From NCBI GenBank assembly GCA_051362555.1, contig CM120640.1:64830788-64894787 (forward strand): a DNA stretch of 64,000 nucleotides, read 5' to 3'. Origin of the DNA: Lingula anatina (Eukaryota; Animalia; Brachiopoda). The position numbers and the translations under genes were made by a program. Positions 350-63,521 of the stretch are shown one piece after another (positions within the stretch are counted from its first letter, which is position 1; each line of letters opens with the position of its first letter). The notes below the pieces were generated by a model. The model had not been told where the DNA came from. It made no database searches and saw nothing but the letters and a program-made list of their open reading frames with translations.

Positions 350-3300
350 CGGCCATCACACTGTCACAACTCCTGTGTGTATGTGTACAGATACAATGAA
401 TAGTATATTATATCAAGTCTGAATACTCCAGAATGTAATGTGAATCTTGAAAGATTACATTTTGAAGGATGATAGTGATAATGTTTGAGGTACAGATATT
501 TTTTGTGTATTCTTTTAAGAATGATGCATTATTAAATGATGCAGGTTATTTACATACTGTGCACAACTACAAATACTAACAAAAAGAATTTATATTTTGA
601 ATTATACATTTCATTAAGCCCAATGGTCATATAGAAACATTTGTACAAGTTTACATCGGTCTGGTCTGTGTTTTGAAAATGCAGGTTCATTCCTTATTTG
701 GATCTTATTGACATCATCATGGTGTTTCTTTATACAATCTGGAGAGGTTTGTCGAGTAAGTTCACTTGATATGTATAATTTTTATTTAGTATCCCAAAAG
801 GTTATCAAGAAATAAAAATTATCACTTTAATATACAGTGGCATCAAACCCTAATAAAGAGGAAATGGTTTAACACTGAGAAGGTAACGGGACTGTATGAA
901 AATGCCCGTTGCAACTATGCTTTTATCATCTTGTAACGGTTAATGAATGTTTGACAAAATTGTCTGGGACACCAAATTTTTGTAATATTTGTTTTTGTAG
1001 TTGAAATAGTCAGAAGAGTTTGAAATCTGTTTTAAATTATGATAGGCAATAAGACAAATACTAGAATCGACATTGAATTACAAGTCTCGTGTTATTAAAA
1101 AGTTCCATAATCAACATCTGAGCTTGTGATCTTGTCTTATTTTCTGTTTTCCGTTTTGATGAGCAGTAAGCTCACATTGAATTGTATGAGTGCCACTTCA
1201 AATGTGGAAGGAATGATTGAGACGGAGTGGTTGTGCCTTTTTTGCCATGCTGAGTGGGCTTCTTCATTTAAACTGCTGTTGAATTCCACCTGGGGTGGCA
1301 ATTGACGTGAATATACTTTATCTGAAACTTTTATGAATCTTATTGCAGAAAGATACGTTGGGTCAATAAAGACTCTAAATATCGACAAAGTAGTTCTTTG
1401 TTTCTCACACTCATTGTTATCTTTGATGATCTCAAGAAAGAAAAAATTTAACGTGATGCTGAAGGTTATTAAAACAGAAATTGAATTCAATAGCAAATTA
1501 AAAAAAAAATGTTACCTACCATGGATGACCTGGAATATTTATTTCCCCTATAAAAGCAGACACGTATTAATTTCCCCTATAAAAGCAGACACGTATGTGG
1601 GGTTCATGTGTATTTTCTTTTCCTTATTTTGTTTATGAAATTTGACATCGGTATTTTGCGTATGAAACGTGACCAGAATGCGCTATCGAAGCCGACCTAC
1701 GCAGTGCATATAACACAATAATGTAATGGCGTTGGAGTCACAGACGTTATTATTGGTTCACTGATTACCTAAACTGGATTAACTTTACCTGTCATGATGT
1801 ACAAAAGCCAATGACCATTTAGGTGCATTGATCACAAAAGAAAAGTTAAAGTTCGTAATGAGACATATTTTATGCGGCAAATATACTATGTTTTTCTTTT
1901 TCCATTACTTTTACGGTGACTGAATTAAGATTTGCTCCATGTAGAAAAGTGCCTGTTAAATTAGAAAAAAAAAAACCATACATTGTATTCACATGTTATT
2001 TGCCTTCAAGAAAAACTAGCTACAATCGGGTTTGGTCATCCTTACGGGCTAATAACACCATTATATATTTAGGGTGCTGTTCTTTAACGCACCTGTCTAT
2101 GAATTCATCTTACTCCGAGGAGATCCATTATGATATGTTATTACAACCATGAATGATACCCTTATATTATGTTAACCCCTATGCAATGTTTTACGTTATG
2201 TGCCTGTTAACAATAGCCTTAATAGGCTTTATCATGTCATATATTTTCGGTGTCTGGGCTTGCTGGTCAGGACCTCCATATTTAGGGAAAGTCTATAAAC
2301 GGTTCTTTTCGCCAATTCCTGTACTATAATTGAATTCATTTGTTGTGTTGTTTATTTTTAGCTCTCTTATTTAGAAATTGAGTACTCGACTATACTATAT
2401 CCAACATGGGTTATTGAAAGGGATATAGAATTATAAATAAAATTAGTCTTTGTCTCTGGTACACGTAGAGCCGCACTTGAAAAGACTGGTGCACTTCGCA
2501 GGATGTTTGGAATGCGAATTTGCACTGAAAAAGTGCACGCCTGACAGATTACCAACGTAAGAGGACATGGTTTATGATCACAAGCCTTAGCACACAGACA
2601 GTCACAGGTATATGCGGCAGAACCAATGTTCCGTTTCAAACCAACTTGAGTTGGCCTTACTCGGTGCGACCATCTGAGCAGGTCGAATGATGACGATAAT
2701 ACAGACAGCAAATCAAATCCTTCTGTTTGGATGGATTCTTTTGGAAAGCTTACCGTAACCGGACGGCGTAATGTGCTGCACTGGGTTAGGATGACCCAAG
2801 TTGGGTTGAAACGCTGCTTATCAAAAGTGTTTAAAAAGGTACCAAAGAATAGAGGAAGGTGTGGAGCTCGGTCTTCCCACAAGCGTATCTCAAAAGATTA
2901 TATTCTTGATTGAATCTTGGATCCTACATTGAACGTATCTTTTGATATCACGGGTAATAACAAATAAATCCCCCTACAAAAAAAGAACTGCATTTCATCC
3001 CTTTACTAAGTGTGTGTTCATGTCTTTGTTACCTTACATATCTCCGGTTAATAGGAGTATTTTCAAATTTAACGGCTCCTTTGAACGCCTACACTCCAGA
3101 ATTATACAGACTCAACTAGCTTTTGATTATCTTTTATTTAAACAAAATTAAGTTATATTTCATTTACAAATTAAAAAGTATATACATAGTATTATCGCCA
3201 TATGGACCTCGTGTCATCCCTGTCACGTAGCGCAATAGAATGCATAAATTGCCATCCAGTGTGTGATTGTGATCAAAAATGGAATAACCATCCCAGACAA

Positions 3301-4095
3301 ATAGCTCTTTTATACATCTTCTCAACTGTATTGTTATGGAACAATGGAGTACATAATTCACATATCTCTGCATACAGTAAGCGTTCTAAGATATTTGCAC
3401 AAAAGAAAAGGCCGTCCATGTATGATGCTCTACATTGATAGAACCCATCTGGATCATAAGCTATCTTAAATAAAAGGTGGCTCATCATACTAAGGAAATC
3501 GAATTCGGGATAAACTGCCTTCACATCGGGGGTACTAGATCCCACTACTGATGTTTAAGGTTGCCCAATTTCTATGGCAACGGTTTCTGTCAATGCACTG
3601 AACACTTAAATCAGGGACAACAGAGAGTTTACCTTAGGGGTATTGCAATCAAGTCTTAAGCCAGAACTGAACCTGATATAACCTGATGCAAACGCAGCTA
3701 GGATATATCATGGACATAACTTCTTTCATGCATTACACATCTTGCAATGCATCAATGTTCCATGTAATGTACTCTATACGGACTCCGACTGGGTATAACG
3801 GTCCACACAATACGGACAATACACACTACTTTCTAGGTATATGTACTTCCGAGATTATGGTGTCTGGCATCTTGCTGTTATAGTTATTTAAAACTAATCA
3901 TTTGGCACAGAATAAATGCGTTCTTAAAAAACATATACACTTGTTTACATCACATAATTATGTACAATAAAGCTCGGAAAACGCTCACGACTCCTTCCTC
4001 GTCAAAACAACTGCCACGTCAACAGTGGTCTCTAACCATTCCCTATAGTGAATTTGATATGAATATGATAAATGGGAAAACTGATGCTCAACATC

Positions 4096-7000
4096 TCAAC
4101 ACTTTGTCCCGTTTTCATTGGTCACAGTGACTTCCCACTGTTTTTGTTTGGACCCTTTTATCACGTGCTCGGGTTTGCGAATATCGGGCAGCTTTTCTGC
4201 TTCTTTTCGAGGAACTTTTCTTTTCGCTGGCGCACAGATGCAAACCACGCCGATAACAAGAATTAAAAGAGCAACCAGCCCCAGGCCGGCCCCTATTAAA
4301 ATACCCAAATCTATTGAAGTAATGAAGTCAAGAATACTGTTAGACGTGCTGCCACTGTCATTATTTGCGTTCTTTTTATAGTTAATATTTGTGCTGCTCT
4401 CGGCCTCCGGGATATTGTCCAGCAAGGAGCCGTACTGTTTTTGGCATAGTGGTACTGCTCGTGGCACTGAAAAGAGAAAAATCATCATCTTGAATATTGT
4501 GACGCTAAACAGAGTAGAATTGAAAATACTTATATGTTATCCATGCTGACTTCTTATTGTTTTTTACCGTGGAATCTCAAAGGTAAGGACAATGCGATAC
4601 TTTGATTCCCCTAGTCTAAATTAATCCTGTTTGAGGTACATATTTTGGATATGATATGTGAAAGTTGGTCAACTTAGATATCTGTACGTAAGGACCGAGC
4701 CCCGGGGTTCGGACCACGAATTACTCATTGAATCTTGCTATTGTATCACTTTCCAGTTGATTTGAAGTACATATTTAGCTACTGATGGCCCTTGAAAAAC
4801 TTTCTTAGAAGGGCGTTTACTCAAAGTATTAGCCTGCATTTTACAGTAGCTCTCGGTAAGAATTATGATTTTTACAACATTTGGCTAACTTCTCACGGCT
4901 TTTGCGCCTTTATTAACACATCTGTTAAACCCCTCGTGGTTGTGTTGTATCAACAAATAAAGGCGAACAAATTTGATCTTGTGATAATCTACATTAGGCT
5001 CAAGTATGTAGTAAGTGCGAATTAGTGTCTTATTTACATGCCCAATGCCGTCTTTTGGAACTTCTATCCACAACGACAGCTCTGATTGTGCCAGCATTAA
5101 GACGGCAATCAGATCGTCTTTTATACCACAAAGAAGGAGCTCCGGGCTACAAGAAAAATAACTCACCTCCGACTCCTGTCAGTGGTATGCCTGGGTCCCA
5201 TCCCCTTCGTAATGACTCTGCTATATAGTTTGTCACCATCTCCGCCGTTTGGAGGCAATAAAGATCGCAATTGGCGTTGACCAGTTTTAAATAGACGGCC
5301 GACCTTAAAGAATAAAACGACACAAGTTAGATAACTTGAATCCCGCCAAGGGTTTGACGTTTGCAACACAAAAGGCTTAGCGTGTATAAACAATATATTA
5401 TACACTCACCTTGAGTACAAGAATCAGATATAAATCTGACGACTACTGTGACAAGCAATCCATTATATAAGAAGAAGGTGTCGTGTTGCAGTGTGAATAA
5501 TATCAAATAATGAGATACAACCTACCCGCTTTTCAAAATTTTCCCGTAGTCCTGCCAACGGTAGTCAATGGAGGTATTTTTTAAATTAGTCCAAGGTATT
5601 ATTGCATAATTGATATAATTTTCCAGTTTTGTGCTTGTTGTCCCTGAAAGGTAAGTTCTAAACTGAAGATCCTGGTCTACAGTGACAATAGTTCTTAGCA
5701 GACGACTGAGGCGCCACAGAAATGCCTTAAGATCCACCTTTAATACATCAGGCTCCTGAGAAGTCACGGCGACAAATTTACCGTGAAATACGTTGGGTGT
5801 TTGTCTGCTCGGGCAATCCCCGCCGTCGTAGGCACAGCCTTCTGCGCGGCAGCCACGGTCGCACACTCCGTTGGCGAAACTTCGACGGCAGTAGTTGTCG
5901 TATAAACGATTGCATGGCGCAATTTTCCGACGACAGTCAAACCCATCAAATAATTCTTCAGGTCCGTTGCACTCGGAGTCACATTGTCCATTGAGGAATT
6001 TACTTCTACAAGTGTCACTGTATGGCTGGCAAATTACTTGAAAAAAGATAAAGCAGAGGTTAGTCTACTAGTAAAATAAATTTGCGACACTAATACTTTT
6101 CTTTTCTTTCAGTGAAAGTTGCGTTGACATTGTAGCAACGTAACTACAAATTGGCGATATATTTTACTTAGCACTTTAAAGTGATTTTAAAAACACACCA
6201 TTGTATCTCGAATGAATGAAATTTGACATGTCTTAGATAAAGACGACGGTTAGGGAGTAGGAAGTGAATTGGAACAACACGGGGAGAGTTCAAATGGAAA
6301 ACAAGACGTTTGTATCACTTACCGGCTTCTCCCTCCAGGTTGAGGCACACTTGTGTGGAGACAGTCACCGTATGTTTGTTAAATCCGTGACCGACACACT
6401 CAATGTGACATGAATATTTCCCCAAATCTGCGGGCTGAACGCTTCTTATTCTGAGAAGCGACACGTACTCTCCAGCCATGACTCCCCAGCCGGCGCTCCA
6501 CACACCATACTTATCGGAGTTTTGTACGCCGTCTATCTTCACACCATTCCGTGTCCACTGGATTGTCTTCTCGTCACAGGTTTCGTTCAAATCAGATTCC
6601 AAGATTCTAAATACTAAGTCCAAAGTTCCTCCTTTGCTGCTAATGCTTTGGCAGGGCTGGTGTGGACTAGGGAAGTAGTACGAACCTACGGCAACAAATA
6701 GAAGGAAAAACGTGAATACCTTGGTCAACATTGTCCTGTAATACATAGTGTTGTCATCGTTCACGGTAGGTTGGAAACTGACCAACGGCTACAAGAGCAA
6801 GCACTCTATAATACTCAAATAATCCTCAAAACCGCCAACCAATTGCCTTTGAACGACAATTACTATCCATTAAGTGGGTCTTCCTGCTCATCTGGCTGCT
6901 GTTATGGCACAAAGCTGTACCCTGGGGGTAGGACTCAGGGACAGGTATGAAAAGTAGAATTCAGATGACACTAATTGAGAGTGTCACATTAAAATGGCTA

Positions 7001-9919
7001 ACTTTAACTGAAGAGGAGGGTTGTGGTGACAAGCACTGGCTACTTGAAAGCTCTTCACGTGGGCAAAGTGTGAAGTAAACCTAGGTGTTTAGGCCGGCAA
7101 GGGGCTGTGAAGTAGCTAATACGTGCAGATCGGCAGTGAATAGGTAATTTTGACAGAATTCGCATGCGTAGGTGCAATCCCCTATACAAACTCATTAAAG
7201 GAGCTTCCAGTAAGAGGAACATATGGCGTATTGCCTGTTTCACAAATCCACGACGCTACTAAATTGGCCACTTTAAGCCTCCTTTTATTACTATCATTAC
7301 TGATGCAATTTCGATAAATGCTCACGCTGGTTTCACTTTGTCACTTGTTTGAAAACATTGGGCAGCGACGGCAAATAGCCCAATTATTACCCATGAAAGG
7401 AGAATAATCGAAAATTCTACAGATAATAGAAGTTTTACTAAACGATGACAGCCCCCCCCCCCCCCATCCAGTTCTTGCAGGAAGACAGGTAAATGAAGGG
7501 CCAGATGGCTTGCTAGGTAGGGCAGTTAACAGTTCCACTGATTATTTAATTTGTTGTTCCGCATAAATGATCTTTTGACAGTTTGGATCCCCCACCGTTC
7601 GGACCGAGCAAGGCATCCGCCAGAAATGGTAGCGAGTGTCGGTCTTGCACAACCGAACCGTAGGGGGTTTACCCAACAGGATTTCCACACAATAAGATTT
7701 TGAAATGAAGATAGCTGATATTGTTGACGTCATGGTCACATCCTGTAATTAGAAATTGCAGTACAATACGTACACAAATGGGCCCAGTACGTTCAGGAAA
7801 ATACTAATAATAGCGGTCAAGTGACATTACGACCCTTATTTAAGTTTGTCGAGTTTTTATGGCAAAGTCTTTCAACATCGTTACTAAAAAATCTTCGCTT
7901 ACAGATCACGACATTTTTTTCTACACTTCTCTATGTGTTTGTCTTTCCCAAACCAATTACAAGGCCTAAAATTACTGCACCTATTGTCATCAGTTAATGT
8001 ACTGGACAAAGAGTCTTTTGACATTAACTGTTTAAAAAGATTGTTCATTTATCGTGTTCATTTTCATCACCTGCCGGGACCACCTCTTGCCACCAGAAAG
8101 GCTCACTTAACCGGCCCCGGGCGATTTTCCGCCTATCTTATTGGTTTGCAGTTTACGATAATCTGTGGCAGGGTCAAATGGAAACGATGATTTATCTTTG
8201 TGTTAGTAGGTGATTTCAAGAATCCTTTTACTTGGCAAGCAGGTGCGAGCTTGACGATGTCAATGCAATGCCGTGCGGCAGCCAAGAGCTTCAGTTTTCT
8301 CTATTTAAAGAAAATAGTTTTCCGGTGGTTTCAATAGCGTTTTTATTTGTTGTAGTTGGATTATCTGGCTGTGTAATCTTTTAATCTTCGATTCTTCTAG
8401 CGGACAAAATTTGTCGAAACATCAATAAATTGACACGGTCTATTCAAAAACATTCTTTACTCACGTAGACCTTCGATGTTTGATTTTACCTCAGCAAATA
8501 AACAGTGTTAGTTTTATGGGTCCGAGTTTTGTTTCACGCATGCGCTGCAAAACGACAGATGTTGGTAGGCCACGTGCATAATCGTGATTTAGAAGGAGTA
8601 TAACAAATTCATTATACTTTATCAAAGGCCTGATTCAAGTTCACTTACAGAATGCTGCAATAATATGGAAACATTCCAGATTAAGGCGGAGATATCCGAC
8701 CACCTGCCTTGAACTGTTGCGTCACCTATCGACGAAAGAATTAAGATTAAGTTCTCAAAGACAATTCGTGTGGCAGTGATCGTCCAGGCATTAGTCAAAT
8801 TACAATTAAAAAACTACCAAATCATTTTTATATATTCACGGCGACGCAAATACCAAACCGGGCTCAAGATGGAGCAGTGCTTTTACGGAGAGTTCTATAT
8901 CGTTGTCGCCCTGAGTCGCGCGGTATTTGCTGTGAGACAACAAGGACGTGGGGGGAATATATATTCCCCAAAAAAGCAATTTCATCTCCACTGCAACAGA
9001 GTGCTTATCATGAGTCATTTTAATATATAGCGCGACCTGCTGTTTTGTGACTCTTTATCACTGTAAAGGTTGAAACGAGGCCGAGTCAAATAAAAATGCC
9101 CTTAGACTTGAGCTACTTGACCCAACTTTGAGTTGTCTTCCAAGTGAATTCCTACATTCAATCTACACGACTAGTTAAGCACAAAATCTAAAATCTCAAA
9201 TTTGAATTAATTTCAAAGTTATACAATTCCTATCAATTTCCCCTGACTTCTAATTGAAATATACAAGCAATTGTTCAAAGTTTGGTGAAACATTTCCAAA
9301 TGGGAAAATGCAAATATCACCCTCAAAAATTGAGAAAAAAAAAAAACATTTACATTTTATCCCATTAAACTCAATCGTGGGACAATAACGTTAACTTGTT
9401 AAGTGGACTGTGCGTTGTTTTCTGTGGTTGAAGCTTCTGTTGCACCGTTAGACTAAAGTAAATACAGAAACGTATTTGATAGATTTGAGGGAGGTGAATA
9501 AAAGTAAATAAAGTTATCGGCAGCGATCAATGCGCCAAAAGAGCTCGCGTGTGAACACGCCAGGTGCAAGCTATCAAAGCATAAAGCACTGCTAGCGTAC
9601 ACCGAGGTTTTCATTGAGCAACTGAAATGTACGGTCAGTTTTGATTGTGCTCAGTGGATACGCCACGAGTCAAGATGTAGATAAGGAATAGTTTACAACA
9701 CACGACTCGCGCAACGTCAAGTTGGCAAACACCTTTGAAAGGGATTGTTGTCTTCACCTTTTATCAACCGGCCAACTGAACACGTTCAATTTGAGACTAA
9801 GTCAATAGAAGTTTTCCAAAACATCAATAAAGAGTCTAACCACCCAAAAATATTCCATCTGCTCTCATCGGTCTTTTGTTCAATTTTGCAATTCTTTTTT
9901 GGAATGGGTCTTAGATTCG

Positions 9920-9973
<54 letters not shown>

Positions 9974-12900
9974 TGTTACTCATGCGTGACAAAAATTGCA
10001 TCTCTTAAAATCCAAGGATGTAATAAAAGAGACTTAAACATAACTGTCCAATATTGCTCAGTATAGTGAAAACGTCATAAATGTCCCATATTACTTTTTG
10101 TTGTCTCGTACAAGACCATCGTAAATGTCAGTGCCTACGGGACAAAGAAAACCTTATGTTTTTATTGCGTTTACAAATGTCTCCATTTGTGAAAAAACAT
10201 ATGGAGGTATTACTGTAATTGTGGATAATAAACAAAAGACCCTTAAGCGAAAGCTGCAAAGCTGGCACGCTTTGTGGTACCTTTTTTTTCTGTTTGTCAA
10301 GCAGTACGGTATACTTCAAACCGCGCAGCTGCTGCGGTGGCAATGGAAAGACCTCAAAAGTCGACCAGAGACGAGACAAATAGCCAAACTTTAGCTGTAA
10401 TTAAAATACACGGGGCAAAATCGTCGACTTTACGTACATGTACCATTAAGACCTTAAGGGTCATGCCACAATAATTCACTGTCAACCTTTCCCTCTGTCG
10501 TTTCCTTGTAAATTTACCTCTACTGGACAAGAGAGATATGGGTTCTCAAACGATAACTCACCACACCTGCATCTGATATGGACCATAAAACGTTTTATGA
10601 TTTTCAGCTTCATTTCAATGAGTTGCGTTTTTATAATTTACTATCCTTTGTTTTATATCGAAAAAGAGTTAATGGTAACAGGTTTGCACGAACGCGCATG
10701 TTCGTATGTGTGTGTGTGTGCACCCTCATATGTGTAATTAGGCATTTTGATACAAGCAAATGTTAAAAAACATAGTGTTCCAGTATAACGCCACATTATT
10801 GCTACACAGACAAAAATAAACGCACATAGAATATTCATGGTCTTATGGTTTTCAGGTTAATTTCAATATTTATAATTAGGACACCAAAGTGTATTCAGAA
10901 CTCGCGCCCACCCATTAAATGACCATGAATATGTTTACACGGACAAAGTCGAGGGCGGCGTGAACGCTGGCTGCGTCGTTTACACCACTTTTTCGCACCC
11001 TTTATTCAAATCAGCATGGAACAGCCCTAAGTCGAAAACTAAAAAGACATCTGATCATCTAATTCGTGGGTTTGGTTCTGGACGAGCCGCCCTCCCCTAT
11101 GCCATGACCTGTGCTGCTTCATTCGAATGACACTATCCTAATCATAACTGAGGCAACATAAAGCCTAAAATTACACTCCTAGTCTTCTGAACAACGGCCT
11201 CCGCTCTCAGCTTTCCTGCCCTCTTCCAGCTTATTTAATCCTAACAACCCACAAATAGACTGGCGAATTATAATTTATTGCCAGAAATTAGAGCGTGTCA
11301 AAGTGATTTAATAAAATTCTCCTCCTTTCCAAATCTATCTCTACTTTATGTGTCACTCCCTTTAATAAGACTTGAAGAAGGCCGATGGTACACTATGGTT
11401 ACAGGTTGAGTGCCGAGACAATTTACGAGACACCTGGTTTACTAACTACCATTGAGTAATGTGTATGGCGTTGTCGTAGACCTTCTTTTGTGAAACTCTA
11501 TCTAACAAAGCTTGATGTAGGTAATAGACTTGCTCAGCACTCCGGTAAACCCAAACTAATTCCGCGAGACAGGATGAGAATGTTTCAGATTTATTGTGTG
11601 CTCTATTAAACAATCAGAACGACGAATAGTTTCCAAGCGACGGTGAAACCTGCCGGTTTTATGTCATCTCCACAATGACAATGGACAACCTACTACGGCC
11701 ACAAAAGACAGAAAAGCTTCGTCTACCTCATTTTCTGAAACGTTAGAAGACGTGACCGGCGTGCCAAGACGCCGTGACACATCGCCTGTGAGGTGTTAAC
11801 CCGGCCAAATTGGTCCTTGGGTATTTTTCTAATTAAACTGATATCAATCCCTCTGATTTTCAGACAGGAAATCGTGAGAAAGAATTGTTGAGAGGAAATT
11901 CAGACTGCCAAAAAAATCATTCGACACCCCACGACGTTAGTTGTACACATTTTCCCGTTTTTTCCCCCTTTTTAACAGAAAAGGTTGGAGGGAGAATCGA
12001 ATGTCTTTTGATAAATTTAAAAGTCGAATACTGAGAAATGATATTTTGCAGCGAGATATACTGATAACTAAAAAAGCTTGTATTTTGATATGAATGCGTG
12101 TTGGTGCGACCGCGTGTGTGTGTATGGTGGGGGGGGGGTGAAAGCATCATGCTGAAAATAATATTCAGAAATGTTGTACGCTATACTGTCTTAATACACC
12201 TTGTAAAGAATTGACTTATTATACCCTGTTTTTTTTTGGGGGGGGGATTTATGAAAAATCAAAAATGCAATTCAAGCTCTGTAGTGAAAATATTAACTTT
12301 CTCGATACTGCAATACATGTCCAAATTAAAAAGTAACCTATCAGCCATTTCAGAGTTGCGTAGGCTCCCACTTTGGAAAAATCAGTTTTTGAAGTAGACA
12401 TTAAAAAACTATATTGTGAGCACCTGCTGAAGCTCGAGACACTGTATTCTGAATATTTCTAACCCCGATAAGTCATCGTCCTAGTGCAGATGCGCCGACT
12501 TCAGCCAAGCCATAATACCTAATGTACTCGCTTGGTTACATACTTAAGATGCAAAAATGTGTGATCCACATATCAAAATGGAGGTGATGCCCTCACTCTC
12601 CTTTCAATGCCTGCACAAGACACTTCATATTTTCCCCATTGATCCTCCATTACCAACCAGACAGTCAACTCATCAGTGTATATAAAACCTCGCCTTTGTG
12701 TTGTGAGTTGTGTAGTTTTTCCATAGGATTCCCACTTGTATTGTATCGCTGACCTGGCCTTGGCGTATTGTCAGGACCTGAATAAACGGCTTAGAAAAGC
12801 ACATCCTGAGTTCAATAGGGCCTGAGGGTCGCTTTCACACGGAGTTGAAAGAAAAGACTGAGAAAATCCCTATCATATTTGCCACTTCCCAATACTCTTT

Positions 12901-15573
12901 CTTAAGAAAAATAGACATTTCCTCTCCGCCTATTTAAAATTGAATTATCACAAATATAAAATGAGAGGTAAATCATGGCGTTTTTTTTTCAGAAAAACAT
13001 TTGCAAGAAAGTTGAACAGTCTGATAGATTTATTAAATACAAACAAGCAAAAATTTAAATCTTTTGAAACACGCGAGCTCGTCTGTGCAATATCCTATTC
13101 TACAGAAAAATATGCCGTGTATTCTAGTACTCCAGACTGTGTAATAGAATATGTCGGTAAATTGCACCGCACCACTTCATCTTTATGCAAAAAATGTTGA
13201 CAAACGAAGCAGGTGCAGATTTAATGATATTCTCCGTCCAGATTTCACGAGCTTTTAAGCAAACTCTTTCCCACAAACAATTACTAGTGCCTTGTAGTCA
13301 CATTAATCACATGCACGTCAGTTTTATCGAAAAAATCAACCAACGTCAGACCCGGTAGAATATATTGAAAGAAAGGTGACACTAAACTGAAATATTTTAT
13401 GCAAATAACAACATTTCAAGTCATGATTTATGGAGAATGAAGATCATACTGTCTTTGAATTATATAGTAGGATAAGAAGAGCACAGAGACTCGTCTGCTT
13501 CATTGCGCTTTGAGATAAGGGCCCGCGCGCTTAATTATCATTACGGAAGGTGCAACCGTATATCTCTGACCTGGTGCATTGAGCAAAAGTTCCTTATCTG
13601 AACTGAGAGATACCAGTAGACGTATTACTTATCTCAGTAGGAAATAATCATTAAATGAGAAAAAAACATTGCCGCATGCCATTTTTTTTTTACTTTTATC
13701 TATCGATCTGAAGATGTTATCAAGACAAAATTTTGATACTGTTAAAAGTTTCCGCTACATTAGTTATGCCTAGGACCCACTACTAAACAACATGGGCCTA
13801 TGTTATGCGAAGTACCACTGATTCTCCACTTGGCGTCGCGCCGGCTATAAAATAAATGACATCTCGTGTTTTCCAGACCATCTGCCTTTTTTTAATCGGC
13901 GCCTTGTAGAATCGTCATGTAGAGATGACATCTTTCACTCCTCTGCGACTCCCGTTCCCTTTTGACGGGATGCCACTGACGACCCCTCGCCAGGCACGTG
14001 CATAGTCCAAACACGCCATACGTTATCTTTCAGAAAGTATAATTTGGTAGTAAAGATGCAGATTTTATTTCGTGACCAAGAGCAGTAATACACGTTTTCA
14101 TCGCAGACACGCTTATTGCGTTGTGCCTACTGCCAGAATAATTTGTCATTTCATACCACTATTCATTTCATTCATTCATTTTCATCTTGGTTATTTTTTT
14201 TTAGACATCACCGGCATATTTACTCGGTAGAAATGCACCAGGTATTCGCATCATAACGTTATGAGTGTTTCAGCATTGTAGTGGGACAATCACTCAAATT
14301 CTTGCACGTATTTGCACAGTTTTATGTTGCAGTCGATTGCTTTAATGGAGAAAGATTAACACCACTTGTACATTGCTTGCAGAGAAAAAATCATCTAGTG
14401 GAAGCGCTTAAAATATAAAAAGCACCTAACTTGATTTATACAACGAACTTGAACCCAGCCGTTCATGACCGTTATTGGACGAATAACAGGTACGGACTGA
14501 AGGCGTCTTTCTTCAATAAAATCACACCTTTTGTTTAAATCTATGCATTCTTCAAATTAAATAAAAGCCGAAACAACAAATTTTGGTTTTAAAATCAACC
14601 TTAATCCTTAAAGGAATTTATCTTTTATAAAACCAGAAGCGAGATCTTTGGAATGGTCCTTTTAAGAAAGAGACTGTTGCCACGCCACAAATTTCAAGGT
14701 GGTCTTGGTATTCAGTGTGTCCCAAATATCTTCTCACTGTGTTCACTTGCTGATATAACTAAATTGTAACACAGGTTTTAGTCATGTGTCGCCTTATGGG
14801 ACAATCCCCCGAATTGCGAAGTCAGATTACCCCGATAATCCACTATGCCACTGCCACCGTTTCGACTTTCACACGGTCGGAAAGCTTGCTTTTCAGCTAT
14901 ATCGCCGTAACCTTGCAATCCAAACGATGTTAGAGATAATTCCTAAGCCACTAACAGTACTGAATGTCAATACAAAACGCAAGGATTTTATATCAAATCT
15001 CGCTGCGTATTAATCGTGTTTTTGGAACGCTCCATGAGGCAAATCTGTTAAGCGACACTATTTATGCTGTTCGTGGGATGGGAGACTTACAACCCGAGTG
15101 GCAGTGGTATAATAGGAATGCCCGCATTTCAATGTCAACGTTAATAGCCAAACTACTGTCAATTCTTTGAGTGTAATCAGTTAGACCGAACCCACATAAT
15201 CCCCCCTGTACTGTCAGTGTTGGAACTCGAATATGACAGCATGAATGGGGGCCTAATTGAGATTTTATTCACTTATGAATAGTCCGGGGCCTCGTTGCCC
15301 AACCTCGACCGAGAGATACGCTGAGGTAAACAGTGAAATGGTTTTACTGTGGGACATGAGGGGCGACTTATGTGCTACTGTCAATATAGAGAGTAAACAC
15401 CAAAAGGGGGACAAAGTTGTTAAAGAGAATTCTTTTCACACACCCCTTGTTCTTGTACTGAGTACACACACTAGTTAAGTTAAGAAGCGCCCATACCGGA
15501 CTGACTTACCTGTGCTTTCTGAGGTTACGAAGCGTAACAATCCAAGGACGACAACACAGCTGAAGTCCCACAT
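4096..15573 (-). CDS. Type I membrane protein: signal peptide - Ig domain - LNR - LNR - NOD - NODP - stalk - TM - short tail (about 481 aa)
   Basis: Exons 15573-15510 (MWDFSCVVVLGLLRFVTSEST, phase 1); 6685-6323 (Ig: IQWTRNG...SLLRIRSVQPADLGKYSCHI); 6036-5526 (CRSKFLNGQCDSECNGPEELFDGFDC, CNRLYDNYCRRSFANGVCDRGCRAEGCAYDGGDC, GKFVAVTSQEPDVLKVDLKAFLWRLSRLLRT); 5303-5167 (GSAVYLKLVNANCDLYCLQTAEMVTNYIA); 4466-4096 (TM LGILIGAGLGLVALLILVIGVVCICA, tail, TGA). All junctions GT-AG with phases 1,1,2,1; total 1446 nt. The link to exon 1 is less certain than exons 2-5. Confidence 0.85.
9922..9970. repeat. (GA)n microsatellite
   Basis: Direct reading. Confidence 0.95.
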
Positions 15574-18457
15574 TTCTGCTTTTCCTTTCTATCTATCCAA
15601 GAAGTCGCCTTCTCTGACTAAATCGTCCCATGTCTTAACCTTTTTTCTTGCTTGTGCCTTCTACTATGAACGCTGTTAACTATGTGCTTTTTTAGTGGTA
15701 CTACTTGTGGAGCGCTCTGCGTTATTGACTGGTCGTTACTGAACTCGTGGGCCGCGGTTGACACAGATCATCTTACAGGGATCAGCCGCTTTCGGGTGAC
15801 ACGGAGCACTACGCCGTCAGTTGCGGTTATACAGCTCGTATGTCAACTACAGTGCTGTCGTTTGTCAGCAATGGATAAGGGCAGAATATAACAGCCGCCT
15901 TCCCCAGAGATGTGCTTTTTAGGAAGAATGAAAAATGAACTTAAAGTCCTTGCTCACTTCTAAACTCAGGTGCACCTTTTTGTTTTGTCACTGGAAAACG
16001 GCCACGGTGAATGTAAAATATCTACTTAGATGGTATTTGAAAAAGTCGCTGAAATTTGAATTTTATCTGCTGAAGCGTGGCTGTCTACCACAGACGTTCT
16101 GCGTTCCGTTGTCAAGTTTCCGCCAGCCACATGGTCCCGGCCTTGATTTAACTTAAGTTATGAATCACGGCCTCCTTATCAGCAATTCAACGAGGAGATG
16201 TAGAAAATCACCCGTGCGAAAATGACAGATGGTTGCGGGCCACCTATCCCATAAGCCCCTAATATAACTCGGCTCGTTTTCTACCCGAGTCGAGATAGTG
16301 GATGCAACAAATACTTCTTACAGCGTCCCGAACAAAACGCTATTGGTCCTTGTCGTTTGGTCTGTAAGACTGATAGACAGAGCAAACACTCAATATCCTT
16401 ACACAAACAAGCACAGTGATTGGCTGTTTTTGATGCATCTAGGACACCAGGTCTTTATCAATGGAAAGTATTTGTTTGAGATCTGCCCTGATTTTGTTAG
16501 GTAAATAATTGCAACACCTGTGTGTTTTCTTTGCCATCCGCGCGCGCCTCTTTAGAAAGTTCCCTCTAATACTCGCGCGCCTATCTGTAGAAACTCCCCG
16601 CACGGCAGACTGGCAAAATAACCAACATATGGATATTAATAATATACATTTTAGAGAGGGGAGGGGTCATCAATATACAAAGCGTTCGCGGGGTATTAAT
16701 GCCACTAATACCCAATTTACTTGATTTACTTTCATTAGCCTTTTCGTTCCTTTGGCGCATTATTCAGAGAGGCTTTTCATACTTTTCACTCCATTGCCAT
16801 CTGTGGCTAGGATTGGATAAATAGTGCTTAGTCCGTATTATACCAATCCAAAATATTTGCCTTCCAATCAGCAATGGAAACTTCCGCCTGAACGGAGGGG
16901 TTGATTTACAGGGCTTTAATTGTGTTTTTAAAGAGGTTCGTTGACACTCAGCGGGGATAAGTAAATCTCTTTAGTCTTGTAACCGTAAGTAGCGTACCTT
17001 AATCGAGGTGCCCTTTGAACACGAAACTACGCCATACCTCCAGAAAGACACGAAGATTAGCAGAATTAATTCCACTCCTAGCAGGGGTAGTCATGTTAAA
17101 CAATACCAGTCGTAAATAATCTTTCAAGCAACAAACAAGATTACATTACTGATAAACAATTATTCAATTTAGAATGGACAATGCATTTGATCAAAAAGAC
17201 CATTTTTAGGTTTCAACTATCATGGATTTAACCTATGTCAGTGATATAGAAGTCGAAAGTTCAAGTGGTAGACGTTTTAAAACTTCCTCATTTTACTATT
17301 TCCCCTGACACTCTTATCAAAGATTCAGGCATAGAATATGAGATATGAAATCGCGCTGTCTATTAACTGAGATAAACGTTTGTATTCTATGACCTACCAC
17401 GGGAGCATTTCTACTGAAATTTATACTGAAATATAAGTTTTTTAATATAATTTTCAAAAACTAACCCTTCGATCACTTACAGAGTGATTATACCTCTACT
17501 AATTCTATAGCATGTAGAATGAAAAATTCAGGCACGTTTTCTGTTTTTATTTATACGCAAGATTTGATGTCTTTGCAATGACTTATGTTCCCGCATAGAA
17601 ATAGTGTTGTGCACGGACGAACAAGAATCTAAGGGCTGGCTATATTGCATTCAAATTGTTAACGTGTCATAGGCATTACGCATGACAGAGCAAAACACAA
17701 CAGCGTGTGTCCGGGCGCATGCTTCAAGAAGCAATACGCGACAAGGACCCTCGTAAAACAGCGACTTCCTGTACTGAGCAGTCCCCAGACTTTATCGAAT
17801 CGTCACTTGTTTTGTATCATCGAAAATGCGTTAGGAGAGCAGAAAGTTTTCCAAGACAATGACGAAATCACAGCCATGCATGAATAATTACAATTGATTA
17901 ATAAATGTGATGGTTTGTGCTTTATTTGTCCTGGTAAAAAATTAAAATTGATTTCAAACTTCAAATCTTGAAACAGGATTGTTGGAATTTATACCGACTT
18001 CTTAGATCTTCCCATTTTCTTATTTACAAAATCTGCGAGTAAGTTTCAAGGGCATATTGCATCTTTTCAAGTCATGTTCTTCGCAAAATCTTATATATGC
18101 AAAAAAATATGTTTCGTATACGTTTCGGTTGTTTTAAGATAAGGCAATTCACCAACGGGTAGCTGGTGAGGATGTAATTGCCGATAAAGTCAAAATTCAC
18201 TAAATATCTTAACCCAGATCCTACAAATAGTCTCCTTAGAAGAACAATCGGTAAGCTACTGTTTATAAGTTGCTTATTTCATAAAAGTTTTGGCCCTATG
18301 TCTATAGGCTGTTGTCGTATGTAACCTTTATTTCTGTTTGCCTTTGCACGCACGTCACGTACCACCCTGCTCTATTTCTCTGCTAGAATGCGACTCTGCA
18401 TAAAAGTGGCCCATCAACGACGTCCATGCTACACCTTGTTATGTAAATATTTCCACC

Positions 18458-21286
18458 ATGAGTAAAACTAACGGTGAAGACAGTGGGATACCCATGCAGC
18501 GTTTGTCTGACTCGGTCACTCCCTCTGCCGGTCAAATAACAGAGAGTGAAGCCACGATAAAGAATCCAGGTAAAGGAAGTGAACTAGCTTTTGAGACCCA
18601 ACTAGAATCAAACATTTATCTTCTATCCTAGGTCGCAACTATAACCTTGACAGCCTTCAGTATTAGTTTGTTACTCGACAGTGCAGGCCAAAGGCCATTA
18701 ATATGTAGTCGTTACACCAGTAAAAGGAGCATCGTCAAATACCAAAACAAGGCCATACAAAACTTATAAGTTGGTTAACGAGCGGCAACTCTCTGTAAAC
18801 AGGGTCAGTAGTCATTTTTTTCCTGATTTTTGTAATGATTCAAACACTTGATGTATAATGAGGGAAGCAGCTGGAATACAGGGTCCCTATTTTTCTATTT
18901 TAGTCTATGGGGATGCATTTTTCACTTGAAAAAAAACATCTGATTTCCTCAAAAAATTGGATGGGTCTCGCTCATTAACTAACTCATCATTGAACGTGTT
19001 TTATCTCGACATTTAAGGTTTTTTAAAAAAGAATATCAATATCATATTTACGTATGGAATGCTGACAAAAATCTTCACTTGTTATTTTATCATAATAAAG
19101 GCAATGCTAATTGGTCGCCATAACAAAGAGTCAAGTCACACAGGGTGGCTTTCCCAGTCTCCAATGCAGTATAGCTATGGAATGCATTGAATCGAGATTA
19201 TAATTCTTTTTTCCACTTTTTACCAATTATTTTAAGAAAAAGATAAAGTTTTACAACAAATCCATTAGCACAATATTTATGAATATAGGAAGCAAAGACC
19301 AAACATCCCTGTATTCCTTTGACCACTTAATTTTTCAGAAGACACTCTATTCTCAAGATGGTGCTTGTCCTTGACACTTGCCATTCTCTGTTTTGTGAGC
19401 ATCATTGCTATCACCTGTGCTGCGGTGGCTCTGTCCCGTCCACCAGGAGCTACAGTCACCATAGAAGGTGACAACAGAACAGTGTCATCTAGCCAGCAGA
19501 CGGAGACACTATCGAGCTCCAGTACAAGCGGTGGCTCGCAAGGCGCCAAGAAAAGAATATGGTTGGTTGCAGTGGGGCACGACTATGGAGCACATGATTA
19601 CATGTAGGTTTTTCTTTACTCTTGGATACAGTTTACTTTGAGATATCCTGAGTGAAATTCTTCAAAGAGCTCATACATTTGCAGGGTCCATATATGCATG
19701 TATTATAAAAAAAAAAATGATGAAAATTTATAAATCTCAGTCTGCAGATGAAATGTCACTTTTGTATAACTTAAGTTTTCAGTATTTATACTCTTTTTTT
19801 AAATTACTTATGTTTTCAGCGACGAAAGTGGTTACCTTGCAGGGTTTAACCAAGATATTGTAGATGCAGGTAAAAACATGTAATCACATAACATGTGCTG
19901 TGCATCGTATGGAGGTTTCTTTGAAAACCTGTAATAAAATTGAGCAACAGTACATGTGTATCTTAGCAGTAGGCTAAGCATGTAAAAACTATTAAATAGA
20001 TTTTTACAAGGTATATTTGCGTAGGCCACGTTATTTCGATGCCATAGCAAATATGACAGATATGCTATACGCATCTACAATATCTTCATTTTATAGTGTG
20101 CAGGGAGGCCAACATGGACTGCAGAACAGTGTGGGACAAATATTCCAATTGCTGGGCCTCAGCAGGCGGACAACATGCTGTCGGAGGTCAAGGTCGGACA
20201 TTCTCTTTGACTGCATTTCCAGTTTTAGGTTTTGGCGGCTTTATACTAAGTGTACGTGTGTTAAGTCAGCAGAAAGTTTCACCACGACTTCTGACCTCAG
20301 GAAGGCAATCTAACGGTATTACAACAGCGGTGGGCGGGACAACAGCACGATCAGATTGGCTTCCTGTGGTAAGAAATCTTATCTAAGTCGCCGCAACTTG
20401 TCTGAATATGTAGCTTCCCCTGTCTCTCTTCTACTCTGTATGAAATTATTTAGTTAATAGGTCTACATGCTACTGCATCTTGCTAGATTATTTCAAACAT
20501 TTGTACACGTATATATATATACACGTATATGGACAGATCACTAAACCATGCAGTACTCTCTCCCACGCTAGGTCTGATGGCCGGGTGGTACGATGCCTGC
20601 ACTGGTTGGGCGGCGACGGTAGACAGGTTGGCAGTCTTCTCATTTTCTGTGCCATTTATCAAAACAACACGCTCCTTCTTCTTCGTCTCTAAAAATAGCA
20701 CTGCAAGTTTTGACTGGAGAGACATCACTGGAAAGAAAATCGGTGAGGGACGGTACCGATTTTTTCTTCACCAGGTCATAATTAGCATTCTCTTTTCCTC
20801 TTTTCTGTCGGTCACTTAAATTACAGACCATATTTAGAAATGCTTTTAAAATTGTACCTGTTGTACATTCTCCTCTACCACAATATTACTTGTTGTTTTG
20901 CACCTTTTGGTGATATCATATAGAGATACATGTATCTAGAGTCCACTACAGCAATGGCAGTACAGAAAAACTCTATGATTAACGTGTAGTACGATTTAAG
21001 TGATGAATAAATTTGGTCAGCTCAAACTATCATTTATTTTTGTGGTTATGCCCCCCCCCCCGCCCTGTTTCGAAAATATTCAGTATAAAGCACTTTTTCT
21101 GCATGCACGTTTCTACATTTGTCCGACCATCTCAACTTGCAGGGTTTCTCCATGGCTGGGCAAGCAATGACAAGTGCGTGGCCCGCTGGACGGCAGTGTC
21201 CGGGTCGGTGTTGAGAGAGGAACAAAAATTTACAGTGGCAAGCCCTGCCCAGTTAAGAGATAGCATACTTAGTGGCACGGTAATTT

Positions 21287-21347
<61 letters not shown>

Positions 21348-22438
21348 GTTGCCTCAATCAGTCTTTGGAAAAATATGTATAATGCTATTTTAAAGTAGGA
21401 TTAATATTTATCTGCATTTGGATACAAAAACATGTAGAACGAAAGATCATAAACCACGAACCACTCCAGTTAAACCTTCGTTTCACTAGGTCTCGATGCC
21501 ATCTCCTTACCATACAATTAAATTATTGCTGTTGTTTTTACATGTTCTCACTTTTCAAGGTGGATGCAGGCTTTGCCGGACAGCGGGACATGGAAGCGGA
21601 GATGACGTACCTAGACCAGGTCGGGGATGGGACCAGCTGTTTTGTTGTTGGCCAAGCCATGGTAACACGGAAGGACAGCGACTTCAACTCCTACTGGAAC
21701 GTCGGTTTCCAAAAACTTGTGTCCAGCGGGAAGTTTAAGAAGCTTTGCGAAGAAACAGAAAAGAAACACGGTAGGTCTCTTTTTAGTTTGTAAAATGCCC
21801 TATATACACTTCCGTTATTTGGTTAAAAAATATAAGTTTTGTTCAAAAATTAACAGAAATCTCGCTACCAGCAGTCTCTTTGTTGGCAACCGTCGGAATC
21901 GTTTTAAGCCATTTTAGTGGCAGCCCCCTCCCAATGTTTACCAGCGTGTCTAGTTTTCTTTTTGGTAAAGTAAGCTCCCCTTATTTCAAACTAATTAAAA
22001 CCCTTGGCTGTTTGATCATAATGGTAATTGTTGTACTTTACCAATCTTGTTATTTACAATGATATTGTCGACATTGTTGATAGCGATTTTAGTGCACCAT
22101 TAAATACCAACATTTGGTCATTTGGCACGTCTCAACAATTTTAAATATTCGAAGACCACATGATGCTCTAAGATAGCGACTATATGTTCTATGGGTAGTG
22201 GCTCGCATGTTTTCCTTAGTGTAACAGATAAGCTGTTAAATTTTAAAAAATTGAACTTTAACTTTATTTTGCAAGCACAAAAACAGAAGAGTAATTTTAT
22301 TCCTCTTACATCAAAGTAAGGTTTTAAATAGGTAAGCATGAAAAAATATTTCTTCGTGTCTGAAAGGTTAGCTTATTGTTACACTTTACTTTTTAACTTT
22401 CAGGTCACAAAGGAGACATTGGCTGTGTTGAAACCTAA
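18458..22438 (+). CDS. Type II membrane-anchored solute-binding protein family 3 (PBP2; HisJ/ArgT/GlnH-like) domain protein, about 358 aa
   Basis: 8 exons: 18458-18569, 19339-19603, 19820-19869, 20097-20192, 20572-20742, 21143-21279, 21560-21770, 22404-22438 (1077 nt, phases consistent). N-terminal TM (LSLTLAILCFVSIIAITCAAVAL), Ser/Thr-rich stalk, then GYLAGFNQDIVDAVCREANMDC, GLMAGWYDAC, TVDRLAVFSFSVPF, DITGKKIGFLHG and FQKLVSSGKFKKL, in SBP_bac_3 motif order. Confidence 0.88.
21287..21347. repeat. Compound (CA)n(GA)n microsatellite in SBP-gene intron 6
   Basis: Direct reading. Confidence 0.95.

Positions 22439-53687: not shown

Positions 53688-63521
<9,834 letters not shown>

Follow-up and report, generated by a model that had tools for sequence, protein, structure and literature searches.

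An immunoglobulin-domain receptor family carrying a Notch-derived LNR-HD module in Lingula anatina and other lophotrochozoans, with a possible disulfide lock across the S2 site

The window analysed here, a stretch of 64,000 nucleotides from the brachiopod Lingula anatina (assembly GCA_051362555.1, contig CM120640.1, positions 64,830,788 to 64,894,787 of the forward strand; coordinates below count from its first letter), contains on its minus strand a gene for a single-pass receptor in which a Notch-type regulatory module stands behind an immunoglobulin (Ig) domain. Five coding exons (15573-15510, 6685-6323, 6036-5526, 5303-5167 and 4466-4096), all bounded by GT/AG and separated by introns of phases 1, 1, 2 and 1, form a 481-codon open reading frame (ORF) without internal stop, encoding a signal peptide, an Ig domain, two LNR repeats, the Notch heterodimerisation domain (HD, consisting of NOD and NODP), a stalk, a transmembrane helix and a tail of 45 residues. 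This order, proposed in an initial annotation of the window, is confirmed by the ORF, Pfam, RNA reads and the predicted fold. The first coding exon (15510..15573) provides signal peptide residues 1-21 and a phase-1 donor, an in-frame stop lying five codons 5' of the start codon, and the single Ig domain (residues 22-142) fills exon 2 (6323..6685), which is indeed of the symmetric phase 1-1 type first described. It is followed by an LNR-B-like repeat (residues 145-177, 5933..6031), in which the first cysteine, C145 (6031-6029), is kept and the fifth is absent, its place being taken by Glu170 (5956-5954), by an LNR-C-like repeat (residues 184-217, 5813..5914) retaining six cysteines and the acidic Ca2+-ligand positions, and by HD-N (NOD, residues 227-265) with an S1-type loop in which the furin consensus R-x-K/R-R is absent (5526..5812). 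Exon 4 (5167..5303) encodes HD-C (NODP) with the HD disulfide C325/C329 and the family motif GWDPGIP, as delimited by Pfam, phmmer and superposition, and the S2-equivalent bond G356/V357 (5176-5171). The last exon encodes the stalk (residues 359-411, 4309..4466) with C366 (4446-4444), the transmembrane helix (about 412-436 by hydropathy and 412-436 in the model, 4234..4308), and the tail and stop (4096..4233), whose C-terminus T-K-C fits a class I PDZ-type pattern; RNA depth extends over a 3' untranslated region (UTR; 3000..4095) with AATAAA at 3138.

The splicing of the gene was followed in raw reads of the same species from four RNA runs of three studies. The joints 6036/6323 and 5303/5526 are seen in all four runs (in run X7 the reads of the latter are placed 4 bases off, with the 222-nt skip unchanged) and the joint 4466/5167 in three; the join of exons 1 and 2 is visible from both sides, since read ends hanging loose at the beginning of exon 2 correspond to exon 1 (16 reads, 2 runs) and those hanging loose from exon 1 correspond to exon 2 (20 reads, 2 runs). 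All four junctions drawn in the initial annotation are supported by RNA reads. No joint leads out of the last exon in the four runs, and beyond the stop the reads go on without splicing to about 3000, therefore no ankyrin exons are joined on in these samples. The product has no Pfam match to EGF repeats, its signal-peptide exon being spliced straight to the Ig exon and the Ig exon to the LNRs, and its tail has no WxP motif of the RAM type, so that the annotated lack of EGF, RAM and ankyrin elements is upheld. In the same runs no joint enters exon 1 from upstream, and the 5' UTR runs unspliced within this exon (15574..16400) for at least 550 nt, with main coverage to about 16140 and thinner coverage to about 16400, which sets its extent at about 16100-16400; this unusually long unspliced leader, with three upstream ATGs (16132, 15771 and 15631), may limit translation. 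Translation from an in-frame ATG within intron 1 (near 6731), which is followed by a hydrophobic run, was considered since run X1 had no exon-1 loose ends, and was dropped: run X1 does cover exon 1, and the hydrophobic run is a polypyrimidine tract.

In a protein search the product of the window differs at 3 of 481 residues from the RefSeq protein XP_013395134.1 of Lingula anatina (P0001), named 'protein lin-12', which therefore represents a second intact haplotype; the expectation that disabling mutations would be missing holds in both. Listed read indels are confined to the UTRs, and pN/pS, the ratio of nonsynonymous to synonymous polymorphism, is 0.28 over 20 listed coding variants, 10 of them synonymous (45 further differences lie outside that list). 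It is extremely improbable that the gene is a mis-assembled or decaying Notch fragment: the database name and the Phe47 that stands in place of a canonical Ig cysteine could be taken in that sense, but the junctions spliced in RNA, the two intact haplotypes, this ratio and the position of the indels are opposed to it, as is the presence of the architecture in three phyla. Run X7 carries many fixed differences over 3300-6520, most of its reads having 90-99% identity to the window; it therefore comes from a divergent population or cryptic species, in which the gene is spliced with the same intron lengths.

The identity of the domains was assessed by profile, sequence and structure. On P0001, Pfam recognises the LNR twice (E 7e-17) and NOD with 20.0 bits, which is its cut-off, but NODP reaches 16.4 bits under a cut-off of 25 and Ig_3 reaches 26 bits (E 1.4e-5) under a cut-off of 30, the match to Ig_3 or I-set being weak; the annotated domains are in this respect secured for the LNRs and NOD and fall short for NODP and Ig_3, although NODP passes in the orthologues from Owenia (29.4 bits) and P0159 (26.6 bits). 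A phmmer search against the PDB matches the mouse Notch1 negative regulatory region (NRR) over residues 150-340 (E 3.7e-27); the two repeats align by sequence with LNR-B and LNR-C of Notch1, and the match continues through HD-C. The NRR announced for this protein is real in its LNR-B, LNR-C and HD parts but lacks LNR-A and is therefore incomplete. A single-sequence AlphaFold2 model had a mean local confidence (pLDDT) of 37.5, and a model from a 31-row alignment (22 family rows and 9 short Notch fragments) had a pLDDT of 77.8 and a predicted template-modelling score (pTM) of 0.64. The top Foldseek matches to the latter are Notch NRRs (E 1e-15), superposition on the NRRs of Notch1-3 gives Z 19.6-21.8, and VIA-align lays residues 144-360 on Notch1 1485-1725 (Z 21.8, root-mean-square deviation 2.0 A over 181 residues), as the comparison with the Notch1 NRR suggested at the outset had foreseen. 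With model residue 360 on Notch1 1725, G356/V357 falls on the S2 bond A1721/V1722, the position of which is given in PMC3145759. The model and the superposition show a juxtamembrane domain of SEA-like fold, NOD plus NODP with its S2 strand, beside a structured N-terminal neighbour, and one transmembrane helix. Residues 20-140 resemble Ig folds (Z 8-10), and Cys33, 114, 118 and 135 of this domain are invariant across the family. For 4 of the 8 complete NRR chains the alignment runs from Ig residues into LNR-A, which, as soft evidence given by range ends only, suggests in the model that the Ig domain is packed near the position of LNR-A; in the sequence, the Ig G-strand and a short hairpin stand where Notch has the A/B linker that covers S2.

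The receptor is not confined to Lingula. Word-indexed homologue searches gave at most 1 family relative besides the query, and the family was exposed by an exhaustive homologue search alone, of which the best 150 of 306 matches were listed. Full-length proteins of the same architecture are P0012 from the annelid Owenia fusiformis (E 1e-58), P0097 from the bryozoan Watersipora subatra, P0013, P0021 and P0159; a partial model, P0167, from the annelid Paralvinella palmiformis and a dozen single-exon ORFs match as well. Including that of Lingula, the six full-length proteins share signal peptide, Ig, LNR, LNR, HD, stalk, transmembrane helix and short tail at 22-41% identity. The exon ORFs of the relatives start and end where the Ig and LNR/HD exons of Lingula do, and in three pairs of Ig-only and LNR-only records the longest contigs are identical in length, which suggests that the two records of each pair come from the same contig. 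The receptor family spans at least three lophotrochozoan phyla, brachiopods, annelids and bryozoans; among the matches listed, and within their limited coverage, no mollusc or non-lophotrochozoan member is named. The initial annotation, which saw here a non-Notch receptor with LNR and HD, was right in that the receptor is real and expressed and that no description of it was found, but it missed the conserved family. A literature search outside supplements and subscription journals found no description of the Ig-LNR-LNR-HD architecture, nor of four accessions and one UniProt id, and the available portions of PMC2770060, PMC12166595, PMC5103448 and PMC10970066 make no mention of the architecture; the last of these, a review, names two sea-urchin 'Notch-like' receptors. 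The ESM Atlas gave no feature match above 0.80 and no structural match for the whole architecture, from which neither novelty nor absence follows. The family is real and conserved, and apparently undescribed. By their own account, two surveys of the Notch pathway in lophotrochozoans discarded proteins of unexpected architecture (PMC8166818, PMC5356439), and the Ig-LNR-HD family would have been filtered out.

The Lingula receptor is not a member of the Notch family, as it has neither EGF repeats, three LNRs, RAM nor ankyrin repeats, yet it carries a Notch-derived module. The likely origin of the family is a duplicated segment of a Notch gene, in which the Ig exon would have replaced the EGF array and LNR-A at the phase-1 intron just 5' of LNR-B, and a short tail would have been swapped in for the RAM-ANK-PEST region. 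One departure of the family from the Notch module concerns its cysteines. LNR-B Cys5 is missing in all 24 family sequences (16 distinct when cluster mates are merged) and present in 52 of 52 ankyrin-motif Notch proteins and in 51 of 51 sequences with a preceding LNR-A, and LNR-B Cys1, which is C145, is retained in 18 of the 19 family rows that cover it in alignment A2. The cysteines of an LNR pair 1-5, 2-4 and 3-6. In 7/7 complete family stalks vs 0/35 in Notch, a cysteine equivalent to C366 occupies one of the positions +37 to +39 counted from the HD disulfide, some 9 residues beyond the S2 equivalent; two Notch proteins have a cysteine at +20 or +33. The consensus ectodomain has 20 cysteines, all of which can pair only if C366 bonds upstream or between chains. 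The AlphaFold2 model has short strands at 142-144 and 365-369; it is ordered over residues 361-370 (pLDDT 83) and becomes disordered further along, at 381-402. In P0021 both cysteines of the HD disulfide have been lost together, and those equivalent to C145 and C366 are kept. Trp348 is shared by 12 of 14 family rows and found in one Notch protein of 35, and a bulky residue stands at 344 in 12/14 vs 13/35; the two could fill the void that L1482 and F1484 occupy in Notch1 (PMC3145759).

We infer from these sequences that the loss of LNR-B Cys5 and the gain of the stalk cysteine most simply represent a rewired disulfide, C145-C366. C145, freed by the loss of Cys5, would pair with the new C366, nine residues past the S2-equivalent bond; with this bond neither orphan cysteine would be left over, and the consensus ectodomain would contain ten disulfides. 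Such a bond is geometrically plausible because the end of LNR-B in Notch adjoins the HD disulfide (PMC13436963), at the end of the domain where strand beta5 would exit, and an alternative pairing, C135-C145 together with C33-C366, would have the same consequence. One anchor of the bond would lie ahead of the entire LNR-HD unit and the other beyond S2, so that tension on the Ig domain would pass directly to the stalk, the LNRs and strand beta5 would not be peeled, and a cut at S2 would leave the ectodomain tethered. The NRR would become a pedestal stabilised by Ca2+ and disulfides; shedding, if any, would occur independently of force in the extra, disordered stretch of about 30 residues in the stalk, and output would proceed via an Ig partner and a PDZ scaffold rather than in the nucleus. 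We propose, with what we judge to be an even chance of being right, that the protein is a single-pass Ig-LNR-LNR-HD receptor whose Notch module is likely disulfide-locked across S2 and would serve as a rigid base for what is probably an adhesion or recognition receptor anchored to PDZ scaffolds, and not as a switch opened by force. A force-gated switch transferred intact, as first imagined, is not supported: LNR-A is absent, a family-wide cysteine swap could bridge S2 covalently, and a longer disordered stalk would bypass the NRR.

Several observations weigh against this proposal. C145 and C366 could form inter-chain dimers or stay free. The residue P1' of S2 is V, I or L in 18 of 18 covering family rows of A2 and the Ca2+ ligands are conserved, which is expected if cleavage still mattered. 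Phe47 (6611-6609) replaces the canonical Ig cysteine in both Lingula haplotypes, so C114 is without its usual partner, this B-strand cysteine being present in 8/8 other family Ig rows of A2. The assignment of PDZ-type termini is a pattern match over related sequences, not independent events. The tree of the NRR, built from 60 rows with the segment that bears the diagnostic trait masked, cuts both ways: 13 of the 14 family rows come together, in favour of the family, but with weak support (58/88), and the long-branch Watersipora row lies elsewhere in the free tree; when all 14 rows are constrained together the log-likelihood is 3.28 above that of the free tree with an approximately unbiased test value (p-AU) of 0.56, so a single origin is compatible with the data, and this value is no demonstration of a clade. 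Finally, the GW motif is present also in P0024, an ankyrin-bearing Notch, and in P0014, a fragment with three LNRs, and is therefore older than the family. In both of these proteins, as in the family, a GW loop precedes the S2 strand, and measured by tree path no row outside the family lies closer to the Lingula protein than P0024; P0024 and P0014 may be markers of the Notch lineage that gave rise to the family.

A rival hypothesis, kept in play by the conserved P1' residue, the Ca2+ ligands and a hydrophobic residue at the plug spacing, is that the receptor still works as a force-gated proteolytic switch, in which the Ig domain would cap S2 in place of LNR-A, a pull would expose G356/V357 to ADAM10, and gamma-secretase would free the tail from a PDZ scaffold; C145 and C366 would then serve dimerisation or act as a reducible lock, that is, a redox gate. 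From LNR-B to beta5 nothing is missing from the NRR fold, and the pTM hints at a fixed Ig-NRR arrangement; the superposition, judged by range ends only, extends into LNR-A in half of the full chains. In Notch1, L1482 and F1484 fill a void beside the S2 strand (PMC3145759), and a mutation of the fly gatekeeper leads to constitutive activation (PMC13436963). The residue after Ig C135 is hydrophobic in 9/9 Ig rows, and in Lingula L136 sits 9 residues before LNR-B Cys1, at the spacing of the Notch1 plug L1482; the model, for its part, puts 136-138 in the Ig G-strand, and Leu136-Asn137-Leu138, taken as a retained gatekeeper, have conserved hydrophobicity at the first position only. It is further reported that SEA-like domains with other neighbours work as switches (PMC6586460) and that many unrelated domains can substitute (10.1101/2024.07.10.602225). 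On the other hand, LNR-A and the A/B linker are the main mechanical resistance in Notch1 (PMC3145759), the coupled loss of Cys5 and gain of a cysteine past S2 recur across the family, gating at S2 would be leaky with the longer disordered stalk, and no effector, RAM motif included, is evident in the tail. We therefore regard a surviving switch as rather unlikely.

The stalk itself bears on a different alternative, namely that the protein is the precursor of a soluble factor shed constitutively, whose stalk would be cut without force and whose disulfide-stabilised Ig-LNR-HD ectodomain would act remotely. The distance from the HD cysteine to the cytosol is 97-111 residues in the family vs 60-84 in Notch, the family stalk being about 30-32 residues longer and modelled as disordered, and juxtamembrane insertions of 14-17 residues make Notch1 ligand-independent and refractory to an NRR antibody (PMC2817004). 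Such a precursor is compatible with the proposed disulfide staple, but a PDZ-type end that is conserved implies that the protein acts at the membrane, and the N-glycosylation or Ser/Thr-rich segments of the family stalks, with N394 invariant in 6/6, may shield them; we judge this alternative improbable. The tail, in turn, speaks to the output of the receptor. PDZ-type C-termini, by class I and II motif definitions, are found in 7/7 family tails (6 of class I) vs 14/55 Notch-like proteins (4 of class I), and the RAM WxP motif is absent in all 7 family tails; with no RAM motif and a PDZ-type end, the synNotch-like nuclear output envisaged in the initial annotation is therefore not expected. The idea of a Notch-pathway decoy, also raised there, is weak: DSL ligands are bound by EGF repeats, of which the protein has none, and it therefore cannot be a ligand decoy. 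In a modified form, as a modulator in cis, it would bind the Notch NRR by its LNR surfaces or compete for ADAM10 or gamma-secretase: the LNR-C repeat is intact, and in Drosophila the LNR region suffices for dimerisation and the LNR-C interface affects Notch turnover (PMC13436963). The conserved Ig domain and PDZ-type tail point, however, to a role of its own, and we give this modulator little credence. In our reading of the sequences, the likeliest task of the receptor would be adhesion or cell recognition at a scaffolded membrane domain.

A comparison with known systems places the receptor between several of them. With Notch/LIN-12/GLP-1 it has in common the order LNR-B, LNR-C, HD-N and HD-C, the NRR fold, the HD disulfide, the Ca2+-ligand positions and the hydrophobic P1' of S2, and its HD-C exon ends just past S2 with the juxtamembrane region in the next exon, as in exons 27 and 28 of human NOTCH1 (PMC2817004); unlike Notch it has no EGF, LNR-A, RAM, ankyrin, PEST, LNR-B Cys5 or S1 furin motif, and it has an Ig domain, a stalk cysteine, a stalk longer by about 32 residues and a PDZ-type C-terminus. 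It resembles the SEA-like switch receptors (dystroglycan, PCDH15, CDHR2 and EpCAM/Trop2) in being single-pass with a juxtamembrane SEA-like domain and a structured N-terminal neighbour (PMC6586460), but differs in that its SEA-like domain is derived from Notch, comes with two LNRs and is probably bridged covalently over the cleavage strand. The overall layout of an N-terminal Ig domain, a single transmembrane helix and a short tail with a PDZ-type end (the latter by pattern match) recalls JAM, nectin, CADM and CAR. These are Ig-superfamily junctional adhesion proteins with PDZ tails; the likeness lies in the layout, and the Lingula receptor differs in having one Ig domain with extra disulfides, on LNR-LNR-HD, and no further Ig. 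The synNotch receptors keep the three-LNR NRR and the transmembrane segment of Notch and release a transcription factor. They share with the present receptor a foreign binding domain on a Notch regulatory core, but it has neither an intact three-LNR NRR, nor the Notch transmembrane segment, nor the release of a transcription factor. Pappalysins and GNPTAB are likewise non-Notch proteins with LNR repeats (weak matches), but are enzymes without HD or an Ig-NRR-transmembrane layout. A short isoform of teleost notchl, P0044 from Menidia menidia, has a signal peptide, two LNRs, HD, transmembrane helix and tail with no EGF or ankyrin in the gene model, but it lacks the Ig domain and the stalk cysteine and keeps LNR-B Cys5; its membership in the family was rejected, as it groups (100/99) with the ankyrin-motif proteins P0089 and P0054. 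P0044 appears as independent of the Lingula family, and is possibly a short isoform.

NOD and NODP have so far been treated as domains specific to Notch, and here the NRR has been exported to another receptor and retained in brachiopods, annelids and bryozoans. It can be hypothesised, with somewhat less than an even chance, that the family is the first example in nature of a non-Notch receptor built on the Notch NRR, kept since the split of annelids and lophophorates, in which an LNR disulfide was rewired over S2 to give a locked, possibly redox-releasable pedestal for a PDZ-tied Ig adhesion receptor. If the C145-C366 staple is real, the family would constitute a natural experiment on the load path of the NRR, in which a single disulfide would decouple force from the exposure of S2; it could be tested in existing chimeric-Notch assays and would provide a design for lockable or redox-gated synthetic Notch. 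If the protein instead still switches without LNR-A, it would be a natural NRR of reduced size under a new cap, of no less value to the study of mechanism and to engineering.

Elsewhere in the window, two exon-like ORFs on the minus strand (59977-60408 and 54862-55185) match a Ser/Thr phosphatase (Metallophos, E 1e-19 and 3e-12), which by its motifs looks like PP1. On the plus strand, two exon-like ORFs without Pfam match (19323-19607 and 21383-21793), the first with a hydrophobic N-terminal stretch, probably belong to a separate secreted or membrane protein, transcribed away from the Ig-LNR-HD gene.

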